Assembly: GCA_963701295.1 (NCBI GenBank)
Contig: OY969585.1
Location: 2,432,001-2,496,000 of the forward strand
Direction: 5' to 3'
Length of the DNA stretch: 64,000 bases
Origin: Ignavibacteriota bacterium
GTDB lineage: Bacteria > Bacteroidota > Ignavibacteria > UBA10030
Below, piece by piece: positions 32,712 to 60,427 of this stretch. The first letter of the stretch is position 1. Each line of letters starts with the position of its first letter. The notes under the pieces are model-generated. The model did not search any database, had not been told where the DNA came from, and saw only the letters and a program-made list of their open reading frames with translations. The translations under genes were made by a program, and so were the position numbers.

Positions 32712-32827
32712 TTTGGCTGCAGACCTAGCAGTCTCTCAAATAATTTATTCATGTTAGGCTGCAATATGCAGTCTAACACTCAAAAAAGCGTATTAGGCTG
32801 CGGTATGCAGTCTAATCAGAGTTAGGC
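32712..32827 (+). other. Candidate attI site
   Basis: Simple site GTCTAAT-CAGA-GTTAGGC (crossover G|TT at 32821) preceded by palindromic direct repeats at 32712, 32753 and 32792; no attC arm upstream. Confidence 0.7.
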
Positions 32828-32845
32828 CGCAAACGGGAGGAATCA

Positions 32846-41932: not shown

Positions 41933-42331
41933 ATGAAGAAAGAACATACAATCGTCAGAAAGCTTCTTGCAACTCAAAAATGGTCAGAGGAAACCGCACG
42001 TCTAGCCTATCGTGCTCGCTACAAATGCGAGTATTGCGGCTTGGATCTACTTTCTTCTCCAGATATATACAGATTATGGCAAGTAGATCATATCGTTCCA
42101 AAATCTAAAGGCGGTTCAGACGCCATTTCAAATAAAGCCACTGCTTGCATGCCGTGCAACATTTACTTCAAGCGTAAGTGGAATCCAAGAAATAATGTCG
42201 GCCCCAAAGCCACGCGCAAACAATTGATTTTAGCAGTTCAACAATATGTTCGAGAAAAGAAAGCGGAAACAGAGAAAGAACTAATTGAAGTCCATCAAAT
42301 TGTCGGATACAATAAAAAGCTTGCGCCCTAA
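41933..42331 (+). CDS. Cassette: HNH endonuclease
   Basis: CEYCG...VDHIVPKSKGG..N..ACMPCN. Confidence 0.88.
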   Translation: MKKEHTIVRKLLATQKWSEETARLAYRARYKCEYCGLDLLSSPDIYRLWQVDHIVPKSKGGSDAISNKATACMPCNIYFKRKWNPRNNVGPKATRKQLILAVQQYVREKKAETEKELIEVHQIVGYNKKLAP

Positions 42332-42399
42332 CCAGTTTAAAAAGGAAAGAGTCAAGTAAATAATATACTCCCGATGCGTTCCGCGCAATCGGAATGCAG

Positions 42400-42655
42400 A
42401 GTTCTTTAACATTAAGGACGACCGAATCCGTGCCGATGCCGCGTTCTCTATCGAATAGACAGGCGATTACCAGAGCAATGCCGTCCAAACCAGTTTACGG
42501 ATTTACATTCACTCATTGAAGAAACGATGGTGAAAGCGTATCTCGTCGAGCGAGATGTTCCAGATATTACCACGGCACAGCGCACTCTCTTCCCAATCCA
42601 GCGAACGATCCCGACGCAGTCGGGATCAGTTAGGAAAGCGGGCTTGAGAGGCGCG
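42400..42655 (-). ncRNA. Bridge (seek) RNA, copy 1; ends approximate
   Basis: Guide segments matching the attC target (42629-34, 42598-603) and the IS circle junction (42563-72, 42490-97) sit in two stem-closed internal loops. Confidence 0.8.
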
Positions 42656-43631
42656 GCCACTGCTGAGATTTATGCCGGCTGATCGGCTGACCTTTGAGAC
42701 CTTTATATATTGTTTTGTTTTTTAAGACATAGTAAACAATCTTCGCAAGTTCTTTGGCAACGACGGTTCGCGCAGTCGCCTCATTGGAGCGACGAGCTAA
42801 TTTCTGGAATAAGCGTTTGTATTCCGGATAGTACTGAATAGCATGAACAGCGGCATCGGAGAAGGCGATTTTGAGATACTTATTGCCGTCTTTGCTGGAG
42901 CGATGGTGCACAGAGCGATTGGAGTTATCGGCAGCAGGGACGAGTCGGCAGTAAGAGACAAACTTTTTATCGGAGTCGAATCGTTCAATGCCGTCGATTT
43001 CAAGATACACCGTGAATGCGGTGAGCTTGCCGATACCTGGAATGTGCAAGAGCCGTTGAATATCGTCGTTGGGAATCAGCACAGGATGGAGAGATTTTTC
43101 CAGCGAGAGGATCTGAGCAGTAAAAGTGTCTCTGGTATGTTGCAAGACAGCAAGTTGAAAACGATACGGATCCGGAACAGAGCCGTTAAATTTGGTCTGA
43201 ATACTGTAGAGACGCAGAAGACTGGCAGTTCGTTGCTGAACGAGCCGTAGACGAATACGCATGGTATCGCGCAGGCCGCGTAGTTCTCGGCTGATTTTGT
43301 GAGCCCGTGGAATGAGTCCCTGTCGTAAGAGAAGAGCAAGAGTTTGCGAATCGACTTTATCTGTTTTAACTTTAGCATAACTGATGGCTTTGAGATATTT
43401 GGCGTGAGCAAGGACAAGCTCGATGCCGTGATCGCTGAGAAGATCGTTGAGCCAGTACCATCCTGTGGTAGACTCAACGACTGCGTGATGAGGACCGGGC
43501 AGAGAGTGGAAGTAATCAAGAACACGTTCATTGTTATTCTCGACACGTTGTCGCTTGATGACAGCACCAGTGTCATCAACAGTGGTGATAAAACAATTAT
43601 CAGAATGCAAATCGATACCTGAGTAATACAT
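42630..43631 (-). CDS. IS110-family DEDD recombinase/transposase
   Basis: MYYSGIDLH, VVESTT, KTDKVDS, IPGIG, catalytic-Ser region DNSN; AAGGAG RBS. Confidence 0.95.
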   Translation of the reverse strand: MYYSGIDLHSDNCFITTVDDTGAVIKRQRVENNNERVLDYFHSLPGPHHAVVESTTGWYWLNDLLSDHGIELVLAHAKYLKAISYAKVKTDKVDSQTLALLLRQGLIPRAHKISRELRGLRDTMRIRLRLVQQRTASLLRLYSIQTKFNGSVPDPYRFQLAVLQHTRDTFTAQILSLEKSLHPVLIPNDDIQRLLHIPGIGKLTAFTVYLEIDGIERFDSDKKFVSYCRLVPAADNSNRSVHHRSSKDGNKYLKIAFSDAAVHAIQYYPEYKRLFQKLARRSNEATARTVVAKELAKIVYYVLKNKTIYKGLKGQPISRHKSQQWPRLSSPLS

Positions 43632-43888
43632 GGGAATCTCCTTAGATTGTGGATGTTGGTGACCTAGAGAATTATCAATGTACATAATCGGGAGATTCCT
43701 TTTTGGTAATATCCAGCGGCTCAAGCTGACCGGATGAGCGTTGGTGCGTTAAGCATGGCGAGCATAGGTTTCGGTTCTTAATAATAAACTTTTCAGCGTG
43801 AACTTGTTTCGTTTGGTACATTTTGAAAGTATTCAGCGCGGCAGCTTAGCCGCCATCCGTTAGCTGCCACCACAAATAAGAGGATATT

Positions 43889-46082: not shown

Positions 46083-46240
46083 GCCTAACCAGCAACTCAA
46101 GCTGACAGAATGAGCGTGTTGCGTTAAGCATGGCTAATAGAGGTTCAGATGTTTAATAATAAACTTATCAGCGTGAACTTGTTTCGTTTTCAGCAACTTG
46201 CGGGTTATCAGTGCCGCAGCTTAGTTGCCATCCGTTAGGC
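46083..46240 (+). repeat. attC 13
   Basis: GCCTAAC...GTTAGGC. Confidence 0.9.
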
Positions 46241-46547
46241 TGCACAGGCAGCGCGCTTTGTGTGAGTTGTGTTTTAAAGTATTGTGGTTACCTATTTGGG
46301 TTTTATATTTCTTTCTACTGGCAAAAGTTTCTAAGGGCGAAGTGCAGACTAAAATGTTGGTTGCTTTCTATACGGTTACGTTGTCAACAAGTTTTGATTT
46401 GAACGAGAATAAAAAAGCAGTGCAAGTTAAGTTCCAAAAAGCATCTCGGTGATGCGCTGCCTGTGCTCAGAAAAATTCGAGTTATGAAAGAGTCGGAATA
46501 TTTTGTCTATGAAGAAAGTTTGTACAACAAAGTAACAATAGCCTAAC
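46234..46547. other. Gene-less cassette A (structured, candidate ncRNA)
   Basis: No credible ORF; 13-bp stem 46242-46254/46454-46466. Confidence 0.7.
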
Positions 46548-46700
46548 CAGGCACTCAAGCTGACGGTTGCCAGCTGGGTGCAATTAACATGGCTAAGCAT
46601 AGGGTCTGGTGCAAATGATAAAACTTTCGTTGTGGGACTTGTTTCGTTGGTTGCATGACGAAAGTTATCAACGCCGCAGCTTAGTGCCCGTCCGTTATGT
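46541..46700 (+). repeat. attC 14
   Basis: GCCTAAC...GTTATGT. Confidence 0.9.
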
Positions 46701-46983
46701 TGCACAGGCAGCGCACACAGTATGTGTTACTTGCGGGGTTGGGTAATCGCGTTCTAACGGCTTTAAGTTTTAGTTACATTGTACAGATTTAGATTTTGGT
46801 TGCTTTCTATAAGTTACGTTGTCAACAAGTTTTGTTTTGTACGAGAATAAAAGCAGTGCAAGTTAAGTTCCTCAAAAGAATCTCGGCGATGCGCTGCCTG
46901 TGCTCAGAATAATTAAAGTTTTTTTGGTGTTAGCAAGTATTGTTTTGTTGAAAGTTTGTACAACAAAGAAACTATAACATAAC
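46694..46983. other. Gene-less cassette B (homolog of A)
   Basis: 14-bp stem 46702-46715/46890-46903; shares a conserved core with A. Confidence 0.7.
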
Positions 46984-47688: not shown

Positions 47689-47776
47689 AATAAATAGCTG
47701 CCACCTAACCAGTTTAAAAAGGAAAGAGTCAAGTAAATAATATACTCCCGATGCGTTCCGCGCAATCGGAATGCAG

Positions 47777-48032
47777 AGTTCTTTAACATTAAGGACGACC
47801 GAATCCGTGCCGATGCCGCGTTCTCTATCGAATAGACAGGCGATTACCAGAGCAATGCCGTCCAAACCAGTTTACGGATTTACATTCACTCATTGAAGAA
47901 ACGATGGTGAAAGCGTATCTCGTCGAGCGAGATGTTCCAGATATTACCACGGCACAGCGCACTCTCTTCCCAATCCAGCGAACGATCCCGACGCAGTCGG
48001 GATCAGTTAGGAAAGCGGGCTTGAGAGGCGCG
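47777..48032 (-). ncRNA. Bridge (seek) RNA, copy 2; ends approximate
   Basis: Same sequence as copy 1. Confidence 0.8.
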
Positions 48033-49008
48033 GCCACTGCTGAGATTTATGCCGGCTGATCGGCTGACCTTTGAGACCTTTATATATTGTTTTGTTTTTT
48101 AAGACATAGTAAACAATCTTCGCAAGTTCTTTGGCAACGACGGTTCGCGCAGTCGCCTCATTGGAGCGACGAGCTAATTTCTGGAATAAGCGTTTGTATT
48201 CCGGATAGTACTGAATAGCATGAACAGCGGCATCGGAGAAGGCGATTTTGAGATACTTATTGCCGTCTTTGCTGGAGCGATGGTGCACAGAGCGATTGGA
48301 GTTATCGGCAGCAGGGACGAGTCGGCAGTAAGAGACAAACTTTTTATCGGAGTCGAATCGTTCAATGCCGTCGATTTCAAGATACACCGTGAATGCGGTG
48401 AGCTTGCCGATACCTGGAATGTGCAAGAGCCGTTGAATATCGTCGTTGGGAATCAGCACAGGATGGAGAGATTTTTCCAGCGAGAGGATCTGAGCAGTAA
48501 AAGTGTCTCTGGTATGTTGCAAGACAGCAAGTTGAAAACGATACGGATCCGGAACAGAGCCGTTAAATTTGGTCTGAATACTGTAGAGACGCAGAAGACT
48601 GGCAGTTCGTTGCTGAACGAGCCGTAGACGAATACGCATGGTATCGCGCAGGCCGCGTAGTTCTCGGCTGATTTTGTGAGCCCGTGGAATGAGTCCCTGT
48701 CGTAAGAGAAGAGCAAGAGTTTGCGAATCGACTTTATCTGTTTTAACTTTAGCATAACTGATGGCTTTGAGATATTTGGCGTGAGCAAGGACAAGCTCGA
48801 TGCCGTGATCGCTGAGAAGATCGTTGAGCCAGTACCATCCTGTGGTAGACTCAACGACTGCGTGATGAGGACCGGGCAGAGAGTGGAAGTAATCAAGAAC
48901 ACGTTCATTGTTATTCTCGACACGTTGTCGCTTGATGACAGCACCAGTGTCATCAACAGTGGTGATAAAACAATTATCAGAATGCAAATCGATACCTGAG
49001 TAATACAT
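48007..49008 (-). CDS. IS110-family DEDD recombinase/transposase
   Basis: Protein identical to copy 1 in the ORF track. Confidence 0.95.
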   Translation of the reverse strand: MYYSGIDLHSDNCFITTVDDTGAVIKRQRVENNNERVLDYFHSLPGPHHAVVESTTGWYWLNDLLSDHGIELVLAHAKYLKAISYAKVKTDKVDSQTLALLLRQGLIPRAHKISRELRGLRDTMRIRLRLVQQRTASLLRLYSIQTKFNGSVPDPYRFQLAVLQHTRDTFTAQILSLEKSLHPVLIPNDDIQRLLHIPGIGKLTAFTVYLEIDGIERFDSDKKFVSYCRLVPAADNSNRSVHHRSSKDGNKYLKIAFSDAAVHAIQYYPEYKRLFQKLARRSNEATARTVVAKELAKIVYYVLKNKTIYKGLKGQPISRHKSQQWPRLSSPLS

Positions 49009-49267
49009 GGGAATCTCCTTAGATTGTGGATGTTGGTGACCTAGAGAATTATCAATGTACATAATCGGGAGATTCCTTTTTGGTAATATCCAGCAACTCA
49101 AGCTGACCAAATGAGCGTGTTACGTTAAGCATGGCGTGTAGAGGTTTGGATGTTTAATAATAAACTTTTCAGCATGAACTTGTTTCGTTTTCAGCAACTT
49201 GTGGCTTTTCGTTGCCGCAGCTTAGTTGCCATCCGTTAGGCGGCAATAATAATGAAAGGATTCTATA

Positions 49268-49744
49268 ATGAGTGAAGACGTAAATATTCCTACACCTGAG
49301 ATAAATAAATTAGCATCTTTGAGTGACAGATTTTTTGCGTCATTAGTAGATGCATTTATTATGGGCTTAATCATTTTTGTACCACTTTTAATAATTTATG
49401 GATTAGATGGTATGCTTGAGTTGCAGGTTCAATATGGCTTTTTATATATCGCTATTGTGTTTGCGATTGGTCAAGTCATATTTCTTCTAGTCCAAGGTCG
49501 ATTGCTTTTTAAGTACGGACAGACAATTGGAAAAAGGTACTTGGAAATTAAAATAACCGATCTGAATGGTAATCTGCCACCGTTTAGCACAATATATGGG
49601 CTTCGGTATTTATCTATGTCAATAATTCCTATAATACCATTTATTGGGGGTCTTCTAGGTCTAGTAGACATATTGTGTATTTTTAGAAAAGACAGAAGAT
49701 GTATTCATGATTTAATTGCTGGAACAAAAGTTATTGCCGCCTAA
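49268..49744 (+). CDS. Cassette: RDD-family membrane protein
   Basis: RFFASLVD, GQTIGK, R, HDLIAGT.V. Confidence 0.92.
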   Translation: MSEDVNIPTPEINKLASLSDRFFASLVDAFIMGLIIFVPLLIIYGLDGMLELQVQYGFLYIAIVFAIGQVIFLLVQGRLLFKYGQTIGKRYLEIKITDLNGNLPPFSTIYGLRYLSMSIIPIIPFIGGLLGLVDILCIFRKDRRCIHDLIAGTKVIAA

Positions 49745-49896
49745 CCAGCGGCTCAAGCTGACCGGATGAGCGTGGTACGTTAAGCATGGCTTGTAGAGGT
49801 TTTGGTTTTTAATAATAAACTTTTCAGCATGAACTTGTTTCGTTTAGTTTATTTTGAAAATTATCAGTGCGGCAGCTTAGCCGCTATCCGTTAGGC
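49739..49896 (+). repeat. attC 17
   Basis: GCCTAAC...GTTAGGC. Confidence 0.9.
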
Positions 49897-50088
49897 GGCG
49901 CGGTCGGTGCGCGCAGTAAAATGTTTATTAAGATGGTTTCGTTTTAAATTATTTCTTCGTGGTGTTTAATAAATAAGTACAGTAAAGTTTTGTTTGCACC
50001 GCCCGCGCTCGTTTGTTGGATGGTAAAAATAAAACGGAATAATTGTTTAGTTAAAATTGTTCATCGCAAAATTAAAGTATCGCCTAAC
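49890..50088. other. Gene-less cassette C
   Basis: No ORF of 60 aa or more; 12/13-bp stem 49898-49910/49996-50008. Confidence 0.7.
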
Positions 50089-50239
50089 CAGCAACTCAAG
50101 CTGACGGATTGAGCGTGGGAGCAATCAACATGGCTAATAGAGGTTTGGTGCTTAATAATTCGGTTAGTAGCGTGAACCAGTTTCGTTTTGTGAATTACCA
50201 AAGTCATCAACGCCGCAGCTTAGTTGCGGTCCGTTAGGG
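50082..50239 (+). repeat. attC 18
   Basis: GCCTAAC...GTTAGGG. Confidence 0.9.
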
Positions 50240-50266
50240 CGCAGTTAAAATAAAGAGTACCATAAA

Positions 50267-53251
50267 ATGAGGCATTTATTAATATTATTAGTATTGCTAT
50301 CTATTTATATAGCCAGATCACAAACTCTGTCACTTCAAAAAGCATACCTATCATTTCCGGCTACGGGACAGCCGTATTGTATTACACATACGGATCTTAA
50401 TCACGATGGAATCGAAGATATTATTTCTGGTAATGCAGGTGGTATAAATGTGTCCGTTTTCTATGGGAGCAGAACAGCTCCCTATTATCAATCTGCTCGA
50501 CCTTTTGGAGATTCGATAAATACCGTTAGTTGTATAACAACAGGGGATATTAATCAAGATGGTTGGCCGGATATTGTGTATGGAACATACAATCTTATTC
50601 AAGATACAGTAAGCAATAAAGTGATAATATTGCAATCGTCATCCGGTGGATTAAATTTTAATCAAACTCTAGAATTCTCGTTTACCGAAAAACCAAATGC
50701 AATTTCTATCTTTGATGTTAATGAAGATTCACTTAACGATATTGTTGTTGCTCATGGTCATACGATTTCAATCTATACAGCTTCAACTACTGCAGGGCAA
50801 TTTAATTCACCTATAAATATCATTTTAACATTATCTGATTCAGCTTCTTCAATCAAATATGCCGCTATACAACAAATGCGTGCTATTGACATGAATGGAG
50901 ATGGATACAAAGACTTAGTAGTTACCGATGGGTCTAGTTTGTATGTACTTACATTAATAAAAAGTTTCCCATATTTATCTTTGCATGCACAATTTAGTAT
51001 TCCCCTTCATCAGAATGAGACCGGTCAAGATTTTGCAGTAGGGGACATTAACAATGATGGAACTAATGATGTTGTTGTCCTTTGCCGGCAAATGTATGCC
51101 GATAGTGTAGCAGTGTTCTTTAATGATGGCAAGGGAATTCTTTCTTTCAATAAAAAATATGTCTTGGGTCCACCAAATACTGATCTCGGTGAAAATCATA
51201 TTGTTCTAGCGGATCTGAATAATGACAATCGCCTTGATATTGCAACATCTAATATGTTATACACAGGGCAAAAACCAATGATAAGTGTTATGTTACAAGA
51301 TCCCAATTCGTTTGGATTTCTGCCTAGCACTCAATATGTATTGGATGCAACAAGCATAGATTTAATCATAGTTGATGCAAATAACGACGGCAATAAAGAT
51401 ATTGTTACTGTAGATCCAGATAACGCAGATATAGCACTTGTGCTTGCCAATAAAACACCGGGTGACTATTCTTCCATTGAATATTTCAATGTCCCTTTTG
51501 TACCATTTGCCATTACTTCTGGAGACATAAATTGCGATGGATATCCAGATATTATTACAACTGGTTGGGGTGATACAACTGGTGATAACTATCTCTCTCT
51601 TATACTCTCAGCAAATCAATCCGATAAATTTGATTCACCAAAGAATTTGCTCCTATCGCATACTATGTATGATCCATCAGCACGAAAGATAGAAACTGCT
51701 GATATTAATAATGATAGTTTACTTGACGTTGTTATAAGCTACCTTCTTATTCCTGGAATTCTCACTCTTCCAGGATCTGGCACAGCTGATCTATTTAATT
51801 TAGGTAGTTACTGGCCAACATCAGGCCAAGCAAATGATGATTTTGGAATTTTCGATATCGATCAGAATGATACTACAGACATTATTGTGAATAATTCAAG
51901 AAACTTCGACATAGAATACTTAAAAGGAGAGGGTAGCGGTATTTTTGATTTACCCAAAACATTATTTAGTGATACTCTAAAATCTAAATTTACCATCTGT
52001 GATGTAAATCGAGATGGTAGATTGGATATAGTTGCCCTAGAAGGAGATAATCTCGTAAGTTATGTCAATAAAGGGAACGACATATTTGATAAAGTAATAA
52101 GTAAAAGCATAAACAAGACTGTTGTAGATATGATTGCGATTGATCTCAATGGAGACGGCAATCCAGATATTGTTATTGCATTTGGCGACAACTCACAGAC
52201 ACTCGTTGTCCAGTTAGCAAGTGATTCTCTGGGTCATTTTAGTCCTCCAATTTCATTAACGGTTCCAGGACACCAAGGGACCCATAATGTGGGAATTGCG
52301 GATATGAATGGAGATGGTCTTCTAGATATCGTTACTGAGACCTTTTCAGATATTTGTGTTTTCACTGCTCTTCCTGGAGGTGGATTTTCAAGTCCATTAT
52401 TATTTCCAACTGGTACAGGAGAATGGAAATTATGTATAGACGATTTTAATGGTGATCTAAAACCCGATGTTTGCATTTGTAATGGATTCTTGGTTAAATA
52501 TGTTAAGAACTTGACTCCTGGTACTCCATCTGGGGTGATAACAAAAGCTTATATTAATTCCCCGTCAATACAGACCCCTTTCTACTTTTCAACAGGCAAC
52601 ATAAATCGATTCGGTAAGGTTATATTAGACAATTATGATGGATCGACCATCGCTATCCGAACTCACTCGGCTGCACAACCGCCAAATGTTTCGACACAAA
52701 GTAAAGTAGTTAAACGTTATTATGAAATATCGACTAATGGAAAGATTTCATCCGGTCAAATCACATTACCGTATGAATTGAGTGAAGTATCCATCGTAGG
52801 GCTAAAACCTAAGGGATTGCATTTATTTCATTATATGAACGGCGTATGGCAACTTGAACAAAGCAAAGTCAACATTGCAAATCAAACTCTTACGGCATTA
52901 ACAATTAAACTAGATGGAATCTGGGTTATGTGTGATCCAAACGATCATCCAATAACAGAGGTATTTAATGGCAATACAAACCTACCATATAAATGTTCAC
53001 TGTTACAAAACTATCCTAACCCTTTTAATCCATCCACAACTTTTTCTTTTAGTCTTGCATCAAAATCTTTTGTGTCGCTGAAAGTATTTGATATGTTAGG
53101 AAGGGAAGTTGCAATCATTATCTCAGAAGATATGTCAGCAGGAAGTTACACGCGTGAATGGAACGCAACAAATATTTCAAGTGGTGTCTACTTTTATCGT
53201 TTGCAGGCAGGTCTATTCACAGAAACCAAGAAATTGATTTTATTACGTTAA
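50267..53251 (+). CDS. Cassette: FG-GAP/VCBS repeat protein with T9SS C-terminal domain
   Basis: Many D.N.DG..D repeats; QNYPNPFNP tail. Confidence 0.9.
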   Translation: MRHLLILLVLLSIYIARSQTLSLQKAYLSFPATGQPYCITHTDLNHDGIEDIISGNAGGINVSVFYGSRTAPYYQSARPFGDSINTVSCITTGDINQDGWPDIVYGTYNLIQDTVSNKVIILQSSSGGLNFNQTLEFSFTEKPNAISIFDVNEDSLNDIVVAHGHTISIYTASTTAGQFNSPINIILTLSDSASSIKYAAIQQMRAIDMNGDGYKDLVVTDGSSLYVLTLIKSFPYLSLHAQFSIPLHQNETGQDFAVGDINNDGTNDVVVLCRQMYADSVAVFFNDGKGILSFNKKYVLGPPNTDLGENHIVLADLNNDNRLDIATSNMLYTGQKPMISVMLQDPNSFGFLPSTQYVLDATSIDLIIVDANNDGNKDIVTVDPDNADIALVLANKTPGDYSSIEYFNVPFVPFAITSGDINCDGYPDIITTGWGDTTGDNYLSLILSANQSDKFDSPKNLLLSHTMYDPSARKIETADINNDSLLDVVISYLLIPGILTLPGSGTADLFNLGSYWPTSGQANDDFGIFDIDQNDTTDIIVNNSRNFDIEYLKGEGSGIFDLPKTLFSDTLKSKFTICDVNRDGRLDIVALEGDNLVSYVNKGNDIFDKVISKSINKTVVDMIAIDLNGDGNPDIVIAFGDNSQTLVVQLASDSLGHFSPPISLTVPGHQGTHNVGIADMNGDGLLDIVTETFSDICVFTALPGGGFSSPLLFPTGTGEWKLCIDDFNGDLKPDVCICNGFLVKYVKNLTPGTPSGVITKAYINSPSIQTPFYFSTGNINRFGKVILDNYDGSTIAIRTHSAAQPPNVSTQSKVVKRYYEISTNGKISSGQITLPYELSEVSIVGLKPKGLHLFHYMNGVWQLEQSKVNIANQTLTALTIKLDGIWVMCDPNDHPITEVFNGNTNLPYKCSLLQNYPNPFNPSTTFSFSLASKSFVSLKVFDMLGREVAIIISEDMSAGSYTREWNATNISSGVYFYRLQAGLFTETKKLILLR

Positions 53252-53807: not shown

Positions 53808-53965
53808 GCCTAACCCGCGGCTCAAGCTGACCGGATGAGCGCACTGCAAAATTCATGGCGTGCAACGGTCTGGATGTAATTTGAAAGCAATCTACTTGGA
53901 ACTCGGTTCGTTTAGTACTATTTTGAAAATTATCAGTGCGGCAGCTTAGCCGCCATCCGTTATGT
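53808..53965 (+). repeat. attC 20
   Basis: GCCTAAC...GTTATGT. Confidence 0.9.
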
Positions 53966-54248
53966 TGCACAGGCAGCGCACACAGTATGTGTTACTTGCG
54001 GGGTTGGGTAATCGCGTTCTAACGGCTTTAAGTTTTAGTTACATTGTACAGATTTAGATTTTGGTTGCTTTCTATAAGTTACGTTGTCAACAAGTTTTGT
54101 TTTGTACGAGAATAAAAGCAGTGCAAGTTAAGTTCCTCAAAAGAATCTCGGCGATGCGCTGCCTGTGCTCAGAATAATTAAAGTTTTTTTGGTGTTAGCA
54201 AGTATTGTTTTGTTGAAAGTTTGTACAACAAAGAAACTATAACATAAC
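53959..54248. other. Gene-less cassette B' (duplicate of 46694-46983)
   Basis: Appears identical to B, including most of its attC. Confidence 0.8.
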
Positions 54249-56338: not shown

Positions 56339-58459
56339 ATGAAAAAAACATCCCTTTTTCTTTTGTTGTTATTTAATATTTCTTTTCTGAATTCTAAAAA
56401 TTTTATGTGGAAGCAAACAAACGGGCCACAAGGTGGATCCATTGCAACAATTTGTTTTGTTGATAGCATTGTTTTTGTCGGAGGAGTAGGTGGTGTATTT
56501 AAAAGTACTATCGATGGGGATTATTGGAAATTTATGGGACTTCCTAATGTTGAAGTTAAAAAAATTGTTGTCAGTGGAAATATATTGTTTGCCGGAACAG
56601 CACGTAATGGAGTTTATTTTAGTAAAGATTATGGAACGAGTTGGGAAGAAAACAAAAATAGTTCTTCAGATTTTGGTAATATTGTTGATATGGCAGTAAA
56701 GGATACCTTTATTTTTGTTGCCACTAATGGATATGGAATATTCAGAAGGTCATTGTCTGATTCAAATTGGTCGGCTGTAAATACCGGCATTGATAACTTA
56801 AATTTCAAGACAATCATTGTAAGTAACGATGTTATTATCGCTTCTGCAGCAGGTGCGTCTGGTTCGGGTATGTTTCGAAGCACCAATAACGGTGAACAAT
56901 GGAAAAGAGTCGATCCTAATCCATATGCATGGATGGCGGACGCAATCTGTAAATACAATGATACGCTCTATGCTGCGAGGTTTTCAAACCAGGCGAAAGT
57001 TTACATCAGCATTGACGATGGTCTAACCTGGTTACTTCCTTCGGCAGCGTCTCCACCCAATGACATTATTACAAATTTATATGCGGATAAATCTGGACTT
57101 TACGCAGGTATATACAACAACGGGGTCTATCGCTCTACAAACGGAGGAATAAGTTGGGCAAATTTAAATACTGGTCTCTATAATTTATCACCGACTCAAT
57201 TAAATGGTAAGGACGGACTCATTTATTATGGATCTTATGATGGTATCAAAATCTCATCAGACTATGGTACAACATGGCAAACCAAAAATTTTGAACTAAA
57301 CAATAGTTCAGTATCGTGTATTAATTCGATTGGGCAATACACGTTTGCTGGTACTAATGGTGCTGGATTGTTTTATACTTCTGATCTTGGCGCGTCCTGG
57401 AAACAAACAATTAATTCCAATGTTTTTCCATTTGTAAAGAATATTATAAATGTCAATGATACGATCTTTTTAGTCTCAAGCGATTGGACATATGATTGCA
57501 AAGTCATCATGAGTAGTGATAGTGGGTCTTCATGGGTTCAACGTAATAACGGTATTGACGGAGGTGAAATTACTTCTATTGCTTGGTCTAAAGGGTTTTT
57601 ATACGCAAGCACATCATATGGACTTTTTAAGAGTAGCAATAGAGGATTACAATGGACGTTATTGACAAATGGATTGCCAAATAATGGACGGCCAAACGTA
57701 TCAAGTGTTGCTGCGATGGACTCTTTTGTAGTAGCAGCAAATGGAGAAAATCAAATTTATCGAAGCATTGATGCAGGAGAGCACTGGACTGCGGTTTCTG
57801 TACCAGATCAGCTTACTCCTCCGATCATAAAGGTTTCTGTAGTGGATACAGTTATCTATGCTGGTTGTTCAGAAGTGAATGTGGTATTTAATAGTTATGA
57901 TAAAGGCGCAACATGGAGGCCATTTAATATTCCATACTTCAACGGAAATGTTGAAGATATTACTGGAAATAAGGATTCTTTATTTATTGCAGTAACTTAT
58001 TCTGGAATCATAGCACAGTGTGGCAATGTTGGTGCAAAATTAATTAGTTCAGATATCATGAATCCTGATATCAGAAGTGTTTACTACTCAAATGGAAGAC
58101 TTTGGGTAGGTACCTGGGGATCTGGAATTTTTAGAAATATCGATTCCTCTGAAGTCACGTATAGTCCTTCAACAAGCGATCCAACAAATTTTCCTAAATC
58201 GATTGTACTCAAACAAAATTATCCCAACCCTTTTAATCCATCAACAACGATATCATTTTCATTACCTGCGAAAGCAGTTGTATCGTTGAAAATATATGAC
58301 ATAATAGGAAGAGATATAGAAACACTTGTTTTCAAAGAATTGTCTGCTGGGATTCATTCAGTACAATGGAACGCCAAGAGATTGACAAGTGGAATTTACT
58401 TCTATCGCTTACAAACTGCTTCATTTGTTCAGACAAAGAAGTTGTTATTATTAAAATAA
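56339..58459 (+). CDS. Cassette: BNR/Asp-box beta-propeller protein with T9SS C-terminal domain
   Basis: Repeated S.D.G.(T/S)W motifs; QNYPNPFNP tail. Confidence 0.9.
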   Translation: MKKTSLFLLLLFNISFLNSKNFMWKQTNGPQGGSIATICFVDSIVFVGGVGGVFKSTIDGDYWKFMGLPNVEVKKIVVSGNILFAGTARNGVYFSKDYGTSWEENKNSSSDFGNIVDMAVKDTFIFVATNGYGIFRRSLSDSNWSAVNTGIDNLNFKTIIVSNDVIIASAAGASGSGMFRSTNNGEQWKRVDPNPYAWMADAICKYNDTLYAARFSNQAKVYISIDDGLTWLLPSAASPPNDIITNLYADKSGLYAGIYNNGVYRSTNGGISWANLNTGLYNLSPTQLNGKDGLIYYGSYDGIKISSDYGTTWQTKNFELNNSSVSCINSIGQYTFAGTNGAGLFYTSDLGASWKQTINSNVFPFVKNIINVNDTIFLVSSDWTYDCKVIMSSDSGSSWVQRNNGIDGGEITSIAWSKGFLYASTSYGLFKSSNRGLQWTLLTNGLPNNGRPNVSSVAAMDSFVVAANGENQIYRSIDAGEHWTAVSVPDQLTPPIIKVSVVDTVIYAGCSEVNVVFNSYDKGATWRPFNIPYFNGNVEDITGNKDSLFIAVTYSGIIAQCGNVGAKLISSDIMNPDIRSVYYSNGRLWVGTWGSGIFRNIDSSEVTYSPSTSDPTNFPKSIVLKQNYPNPFNPSTTISFSLPAKAVVSLKIYDIIGRDIETLVFKELSAGIHSVQWNAKRLTSGIYFYRLQTASFVQTKKLLLLK

Positions 58460-59401: not shown

Positions 59402-59560
59402 CCCTAACCAACGCATCAAGCTGACGGCTAAAGCGTAGGTGCAATTTACATTGCGCATAAAGTATTTGTGTTTAATAATTCGGTTGGTCGCGTGAACCTG
59501 TTTCCTTGGGTGCACAACGAAACTTGGGCACGCCGCAGCTTATGTGCCGATCCGTTAGGC
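59402..59560 (+). repeat. attC 25
   Basis: CCCTAAC...GTTAGGC. Confidence 0.9.
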
Positions 59561-59578
59561 GGCGGAGGGAAAAACAAA

Positions 59579-60427
59579 ATGCGTATAATAACATTTGGTT
59601 CTATTCTTTCTATCTTTATCCTCACGTCCACTCTAGACGCACAAACAAATTTTGTCTTTCCATTTGATACCACTGACAGATGGGAATATGATATAAAATC
59701 TATGTTCGATTCTCCCTATCAAAGTGCTGGTCATACTACAATCCGTTTCCGCAAAGATACCCTCATGCCTAATGGTAAAACATACAGGACTTTTGCAGAT
59801 GATCGGAGTCCTTTTTTCTTTTTACGTAAAGATAGTCTGAAGATTTTCCAATACAGTGGATCGGATTCCAGCGAATTTGTTCGATATGACTTTTCGAAGA
59901 GGGCAGGCGATACCGTTCAGAAGTTGACACAATATTCGTCAATTGTTCTTAGTGCCGATCAACTGATTTCCGTTTTTGGCACTTTGCGAAGGACAATGAG
60001 CTTTCAAGGAAGCTTCGTAGATGATGATGTTGTTGATACCATAGGTATCTTATCTTTTACTCCGCAGGCAACTGATATTTGGTATCAGCTTACAGGTGCT
60101 TATGTAAATGGTCGCACCTTTGGTGTTTTAACTTCTGTTTTAAATAAAACCGATGAGATAACTAAAGCAATGTTCCTTCAACAGAATTATCCTAATCCAT
60201 TTAATCCATCGACTACACTTTCCTTTGAACTTCCTTTTCAAACAAGAGTATCTTTGACAATCTACGATTTGATGGGGAAGACGATTATCGTTTTACTCAA
60301 TAAAGAGTTAAAACCAGGTATTCATTCTGTAGCTTGGAATGCTTCGAGATATAGCAGTGGTGTGTATTTTTATATTCTTCAAGGGAAAGGTTTTCGAATT
60401 ACAAAACAAATGTTATTAATAAAATAG
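59579..60427 (+). CDS. Cassette: secreted protein with T9SS C-terminal domain
   Basis: Likely start MRIITF after GGAGG; QNYPNPFNP tail. Confidence 0.85.
   Translation: MRIITFGSILSIFILTSTLDAQTNFVFPFDTTDRWEYDIKSMFDSPYQSAGHTTIRFRKDTLMPNGKTYRTFADDRSPFFFLRKDSLKIFQYSGSDSSEFVRYDFSKRAGDTVQKLTQYSSIVLSADQLISVFGTLRRTMSFQGSFVDDDVVDTIGILSFTPQATDIWYQLTGAYVNGRTFGVLTSVLNKTDEITKAMFLQQNYPNPFNPSTTLSFELPFQTRVSLTIYDLMGKTIIVLLNKELKPGIHSVAWNASRYSSGVYFYILQGKGFRITKQMLLIK

Follow-up and report, generated by a model that had tools for sequence, protein, structure and literature searches.

A gene-less integron cassette with a strict stem-and-tail geometry belongs to a much-duplicated cassette family confined so far to one genus

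Cassette C is an ORF-less integron gene cassette at positions 49890-50088 (plus strand) of the window, the whole 64,000-nucleotide stretch of DNA analysed here. It may well be an empty member of a mobile, much-duplicated and probably selfish lineage that carries a candidate single-stranded DNA junction on its bottom strand, extending the attC stem; to this reading we give slightly less than even confidence. Its geometry, a 13-bp stem beginning directly after R' and followed by a tail of almost constant length, recurs in a family of cassettes, a few of which carry genes.

The genome is a single contig of 3.64 Mb with several cassette arrays and one integron integrase (TIGR02249 profile match, 453 bits), which lies 1.1 Mb away from the array containing C. 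This array is headed by an attI-like site (32760..32830, plus strand) of the same sequence type as the attI beside the integrase, and its attC sites are about 150-200 nt long. C sits between an RDD-family cassette and an FG-GAP repeat cassette (Pfam) and is bounded by attC sites with R''/L''/L'/R' boxes and the GTTRRRY core; the integrase and attI are present in the genome and members of the family are inserted at attI, as befits integron gene cassettes. Relatives that share these cassettes bear the label Bacteroidota or Ignavibacteriota. Several arrays without an integrase beside them start with a copy of the attI found next to the integrase: that of the window (32760-32830) and those at 224171, 1796974, 2834103, 3172046 and 3446564 of this genome (G000). 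Of a second attI type, 27 copies are spread over 10 of 16 genus genomes, most of them with no integrase next to them. GC skew puts the origin of this genome near 1.0 Mb and the terminus near 2.7 Mb; by the same skew, the attC bottom strands of most arrays lie on the template for the leading strand, with the opposite arrangement in the array at 225-261 kb. In the accessible text of PMC5371416, a bottom strand on the leading-strand template is the low-excision orientation. Genome-wide, attC loops differ in which optional blocks they contain, of about 30 nt and 38 nt and in mosaic combinations, one block being a small GC hairpin. Two identical IS110/IS1111-type elements (42327-43713 and 47702-49090) are inserted at the R'' end of attC sites in the window; the genome holds nine identical copies and two at 82-83%, with 11 ends at attC, and they fit the IS1111-attC group cited in the accessible part of PMC11187229. 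Very large cassettes (up to 994 aa) occupy 50267-53251, which has a secretion-system C-terminal sorting domain (Pfam), and 56339-58459 and 59468-60427, which end in a similar motif.

C starts with the R' core of the upstream attC (49738..49897), which is part of the RDD-family cassette. Its R' 8-mer (49890..49897) is complementary to its own R'' 8-mer (50081-50088), the first element of C's own attC (50081..50240); the following cassette begins at 50233. Immediately after R', at offset 8, stands the 5' arm of the stem (49898..49910), with the motif GCRC-N5-GYGC, followed by an 85-nt loop (49911..49995; 64-85 nt in C homologues) with G>C and T>A on the top strand and no conserved fold, the 3' arm (49996..50008) and a TC dinucleotide (50009-50010). 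The arms form 12 of 13 pairs, with a single central T.C mismatch. The 72-nt AT-rich part of the tail (50009..50080) would bulge out on one side, between R stem and 13-bp stem. All these features are on the plus strand. A preliminary description had placed the cassette, its arms, the TC and an 80-nt tail at these very letters and had called C gene-less, and the sequence agrees on every count: the longest ORF is 20 aa. Folded alone, C is modest (z -1.8 for the top strand, -1.7 for the bottom strand). One sequencing run (X1, contigs), which may be the source sample, contains C without difference.

The same frame is found in cassettes A (46234..46547; arms 46242-46254 and 46454-46466) and B (46694..46983; arms 46702-46714 and 46891-46903), the latter with a second, identical copy at 53959..54248, all on the plus strand. 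Measured to the end of R'', the tail is 80 nt in C, 81 in A and 80 in B. C had been described as unrelated in sequence to A and B, which is true of the loop and tail: these do not align with the A and B families (best local-alignment z 3.2 or less; no blastn match). It is not true of the stem, whose arms are shared in swapped order, C's 3' arm being identical to A's 5' arm, and C's 5' arm to A's 3' arm, at 10 of 13 positions each. The TC after the stem, likewise, is present in C but is not a feature of the class, since AA or CA takes its place in other families.

The arm motif at offset 8 is present in all 11 cassettes of this genome that measure 320 nt or less and in none of the 111 others parsed; a stricter parse, including two further first-position members, gives 13 framed cassettes of 105. 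The motif finds at least 73 distinct ORF-less members in the genus genomes and the metagenome matches listed. The metagenome members are among at least 127 matches listed; six matches of 57-62% GC with long ORFs and three arm mismatches, contigs with open ends and cassettes over 50% GC were left out. Tails measure 79-87 nt in 72 of the 73 and loops 64-297 nt; when the end is left free to 700 nt, 62 of 63 tails fall in the range. A scan that ignores the motif gives a similar picture: in 423 distinct cassettes with a GC content of at most 50%, the 13-mer at offset 8 finds its complement 79-89 nt before the cassette end in 74, 8 nt before it in five and elsewhere in 11 matches. Stem position and tail length, whose random scatter among ORF-less cassettes of related arrays would have spoken against a class, are thus not random.

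Judged by the covariation of its arms in sequence comparisons, the 13-bp stem is a real pairing. Two-sided changes occur at eight of its 13 positions (1, 3, 5, 6, 9, 10, 11 and 13), some of them breaking the arm motif; mismatches cluster at positions 6-8, and the arms match perfectly in 24 of 73 members. The junction obeys a rule: in 72 of 72, the base at offset 8 has exactly one partner, the arm in 55 cases and the tail base next to R'' in 17. Most of the 17 junctions with a broken arm pair are one lineage and one is a separate event in family A, i.e., at least two lineages. Consensus folding of seven family alignments recovers only the R ends and the 13-bp stem, with no conserved loop or tail fold, and neither the stem-to-stem distances nor AA/TT autocorrelation have a 10-11-bp helical signal. 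A word shared with attC-loop ends was considered as a fixed element of all tails and rejected: it is found in D, J and part of B, at different places, and not in C.

The framed members are one homologous mosaic family, not independent solutions, as far as sequence comparison tells. All four arm combinations occur in it, and cassette k27 is itself a mosaic, with a C-type head and end and a B-type tail start. The proposal that geometry rather than sequence is conserved, and that it defines a functional class of empty cassettes, is partly supported: the geometry is conserved, but the arm motif is shared and the members have a common origin. The family is so far confined to one genus, being present in four of six other genus genomes; the 394 other genomes of the class (401 in all) yield two single matches, not shown to be members, and 690 end-paired segments yield no new family with this geometry. 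C is single in this genome and has nine homologues elsewhere among the matches listed; C homologues differ by 1-nt indels, and chance ORFs of 50-92 aa occur in some family members. Of the 13 framed cassettes of this genome, 10 have a paralogue at 85% or more, compared with 8 of its 92 other cassettes (p=3e-7). Framed cassettes are repeated in several arrays, and identical copies in different arrays, with different neighbours, imply that they move. They occupy the first position behind attI at 8 of 47 attI-like sites, counted from the site listing, against roughly 5% expected (p=0.003), an excess which may come from repeat collapse in short-read assemblies; in the complete genome alone, the figures are 2 of about 9 first positions and 11 of about 96 others.

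Common descent raises the question of whether the geometry does anything at all. It could be a functionless legacy of one ancestor, with the stems kept complementary by template switching at the quasi-palindrome; all members are homologous and mosaic and belong to one genus, and exact loss of a tail is what template switching can produce. Such a loss is seen in one C homologue (G005:C59), from which exactly the 72-nt bulge is absent with both flanks kept. This copy is nested in the family and 92% identical to its nearest, tailed member, and so probably derives from a tailed form; since it sits in an array, the tail is dispensable for staying there. However, about ten block indels are found in loops and none in tails except this exact full loss (p about 0.04), and tails that can no longer be aligned still keep their length. 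We regard the functionless account as quite improbable.

Each arm is a near-palindrome with a 5-nt centre, as are the invertible repeats of Bacteroides, and the arms could accordingly be the inverted repeats of an invertible segment or of a MITE. Invertible DNA segments are found in both orientations and have matching repeat centres, and a MITE leaves copies at varied sites outside its host element. Here, by contrast, 62 of 63 loops have G>C on the top strand, the family alignments are all in one orientation, perfect arms are restricted to the minority given above, and no strand-changing joint is listed among the 63 contigs that match C. As to a MITE, all arm pairs in this genome lie within cassettes, at offset 8. 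We consider either origin very improbable.

On the reading that we prefer, the bottom DNA strand would form the 13-bp stem, stacked directly on the R'/R'' pair of the cassette's attC. The R' and R'' ends of a cassette meet in the excised circle, and there the stem would extend the attC stem, leaving a single-stranded bulge of 71-79 nt and a loop with content free to vary. The structure would then act in the single-stranded, excised or re-inserting form that is handled by IntI, and the empty versions would persist mainly as selfish, readily copied cassettes. As a guess, a single-strand-binding or replication-restart protein might dock on the bulge of fixed length; the footprint of an SSB tetramer is about 65 nt. 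Mismatches outside position 1 comprise about 11 bottom-strand wobble events versus 2 on the top strand (p=0.02), a small count made by eye on kin that are not independent, and changes in loop and tail have no such bias (per site, G>A 0.37, C>T 0.37, T>C 0.14, A>G 0.25). IntI recombines the bottom strand, according to the accessible text of PMC8946536. In favour of this reading, too, ordinary cassettes close their ends as well, mostly by 8-16 bp.

Folding models do not make the stem necessary to C. In its modelled circle, the R boxes pair at 0.89 in the native sequence and at 0.86-0.90 with the 3' arm shuffled, i.e., there is little gain; among eight cassettes so modelled, a gain appears in B (0.97 versus 0.69-0.81), F and the tail-less copy only. 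Both strands fold the stem equally in the models, and folding of the linear array predicts own-end pairing for gene-bearing cassettes too. The stem as an equilibrium stabiliser of attC is thus rejected for C, and because the computed gain is so small, its action at the junction is put forward as a candidate role. Two further observations weigh against the bottom-strand junction: the tail can be lost, and three ORF-less families of the same genus lack the 13-bp stem (L194, L204 and L059; seven cassettes of 214-218, 251 and 252-270 nt). These are G/T-rich on the top strand and are closed by 11-12 contiguous pairs, like gene-bearing cassettes. In two short variants the stem has decayed.

The tail is AT-rich and, at about 80 nt, approximately as long as the footprint of one RNA polymerase. 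It could be a promoter module, and the whole a promoter or silencer cassette like the gene-less cassettes of Vibrio, among which promoter activity is common (PMC11014356, accessible text). The genome has Rho and sigma-54, and a C-poor top strand could let untranslated RNA escape Rho. The housekeeping promoters of this genome have the consensus TTG-N20-TAnaTT, with Bacteroidota-like spacing, and 795 upstream regions contain 191 sense and 47 antisense matches to the corresponding matrix. In the framed family, however, scores above 8 with this matrix are reached by 4 of the 73 top strands and 2 of the 73 bottom strands, with 4.6 expected from shuffles and none in C; no sigma-70 match is found around C, and a promoter would leave the junction rule unexplained. 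The GG-N10-GC spacing of sigma-54 promoters is present in 12 of 73 heads, including that of C, which is the background level. A promoter or silencer role is in our estimate rather unlikely. Diffuse transcription from AT-rich DNA is reported for Vibrio in the accessible text of PMC11014356, and by analogy AT-rich framed cassettes may be transcribed in this way.

The same junction can form in a top-strand transcript, and the cassette could encode a non-coding RNA with ends closed by the stem, released from the array transcript by processing; the accessible part of PMC8876359 cites sRNA cassettes in Xanthomonas. Yet the seven alignments hold no conserved loop or tail fold, C has no Rfam match (a search of 44-56 kb returned one chance snoRNA match), the mismatch bias favours the bottom strand, and kilobases of genes can replace the loop. 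One RNA run has no contig on C, although assembled contigs cannot show absence. We judge an RNA product improbable.

The replacement of the loop is seen in seven complete gene-bearing cassettes from five genomes, this one included, which have the same head, a related arm pair and an 83-84-nt tail but measure 745-4148 nt. Their cargo is unrelated, often multi-gene, reversed or truncated, and includes a methylase and an MvaI/BcnI nuclease (Pfam). With these cassettes framed and the three stemless ORF-less families unframed, emptiness, which had been taken to define the class, does not do so: the geometry marks a cassette frame, mostly in empty copies. In six of the seven, an inner inverted repeat of 14-16 bp encloses the cargo; in four, a 9-nt direct repeat, complete or nearly so, stands at either edge of the cargo. 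The inner repeat also frames unrelated genes directly inside R'/R'' in other genera of the order, the same side always being 5'. These order-wide frames comprise about 45 nt at each end, of two fixed side types, with a conserved 14-bp inner inverted repeat around unrelated genes; they are located at L294, L296, L303, L315, L318 and L323-L342 and, in this genome (G000), at 3566442-3564807.

The frame may thus be a cassette-making vector: new DNA enters the loop, and empty forms are the precursors of gene-bearing ones. The steps by which cassettes form de novo are called largely unknown in the accessible text of PMC5371416. The same frame around unrelated cargo, with its inner and direct repeats, and the recurrence of the inner repeat around other genes across the order speak for this possibility. 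But no empty inner site was found in 277 genomes, and C, A, B, D, E and F are all without the inner repeat. Homology among inner-framed cassettes extends past the repeat, so that the cargo edge is not sharp, and the gene-bearing branch could have had a single origin, an inner-framed cassette nested in a loop, its cargo being exchanged thereafter by ordinary recombination. The inner repeat is not an inward-facing transposon end, given that homology runs past it and that its sides are fixed as 5' and 3'. We hold the vector account to be unlikely, and equally so its specific form, in which empty members are unloaded vectors and a single-stranded frame with a ready attC takes foreign DNA at a palindromic inner site, leaving the 9-nt duplication. 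The selfish bottom-strand junction and the vector are not mutually exclusive.

Among openly searchable papers, we found no published description of such a stem-and-tail frame. The closest parallels are the paralogous non-coding cassettes of Vibrio, which, in the accessible text of PMC1382264, are also ORF-less, repeated in arrays, homologous over their full length and confined to a lineage; their selfish, promoter or RNA roles are left open there. By the definition used in that text, C is non-coding, having no ORF over 150 bp, and the family is paralogous and lineage-confined (10 of 13 with paralogues, one genus). Stem, palindrome and secondary structure go unmentioned in the accessible text of PMC1382264, whereas the family described here has a fixed stem and junction, a conserved tail length and a branch that carries genes. 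The promoter cassettes of Vibrionaceae (PMC11014356) and Treponema (PMC6557892), as far as their accessible texts go, are similarly gene-less, AT-rich and placed inside large arrays; at 491-666 bp they are longer, and decayed genes are among them. The accessible text of PMC11014356 has no hairpin or inverted repeat, while the framed family has no conserved host promoter motif. With attC sites that have long variable terminal structures (accessible texts of PMC5371416 and PMC8946536), the frame shares a hairpin closing a long loop and block-wise length variants. The top-strand skew, G>C and T>A, is common to attC loops (+0.24) and cassette loops (+0.28), the tails of the frame also having G>C on this strand, and attC-like words are shared by D, J and some B tails but absent from C. 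Unlike attC, the frame has no L box or extrahelical bases, and it faces the cassette body.

In some arrays, up to half is made up of gene-less cassettes (PMC1382264, accessible text). Such cassettes are now interpreted as promoters, selfish DNA or RNAs, with no structural feature to work from; the frame supplies one. The stem, the junction rule and the tail length can each be altered in standard integrase assays, with the natural tail-less variant as a control. The gene-bearing branch, with unrelated cargo in the same frame, is a lead on how cassettes are made; if the vector account is true, genes would become cassettes without needing an attC of their own. The strict geometry is real, lends itself to testing and bears on the genesis of cassettes; so far it is known from one genus, with a candidate role.
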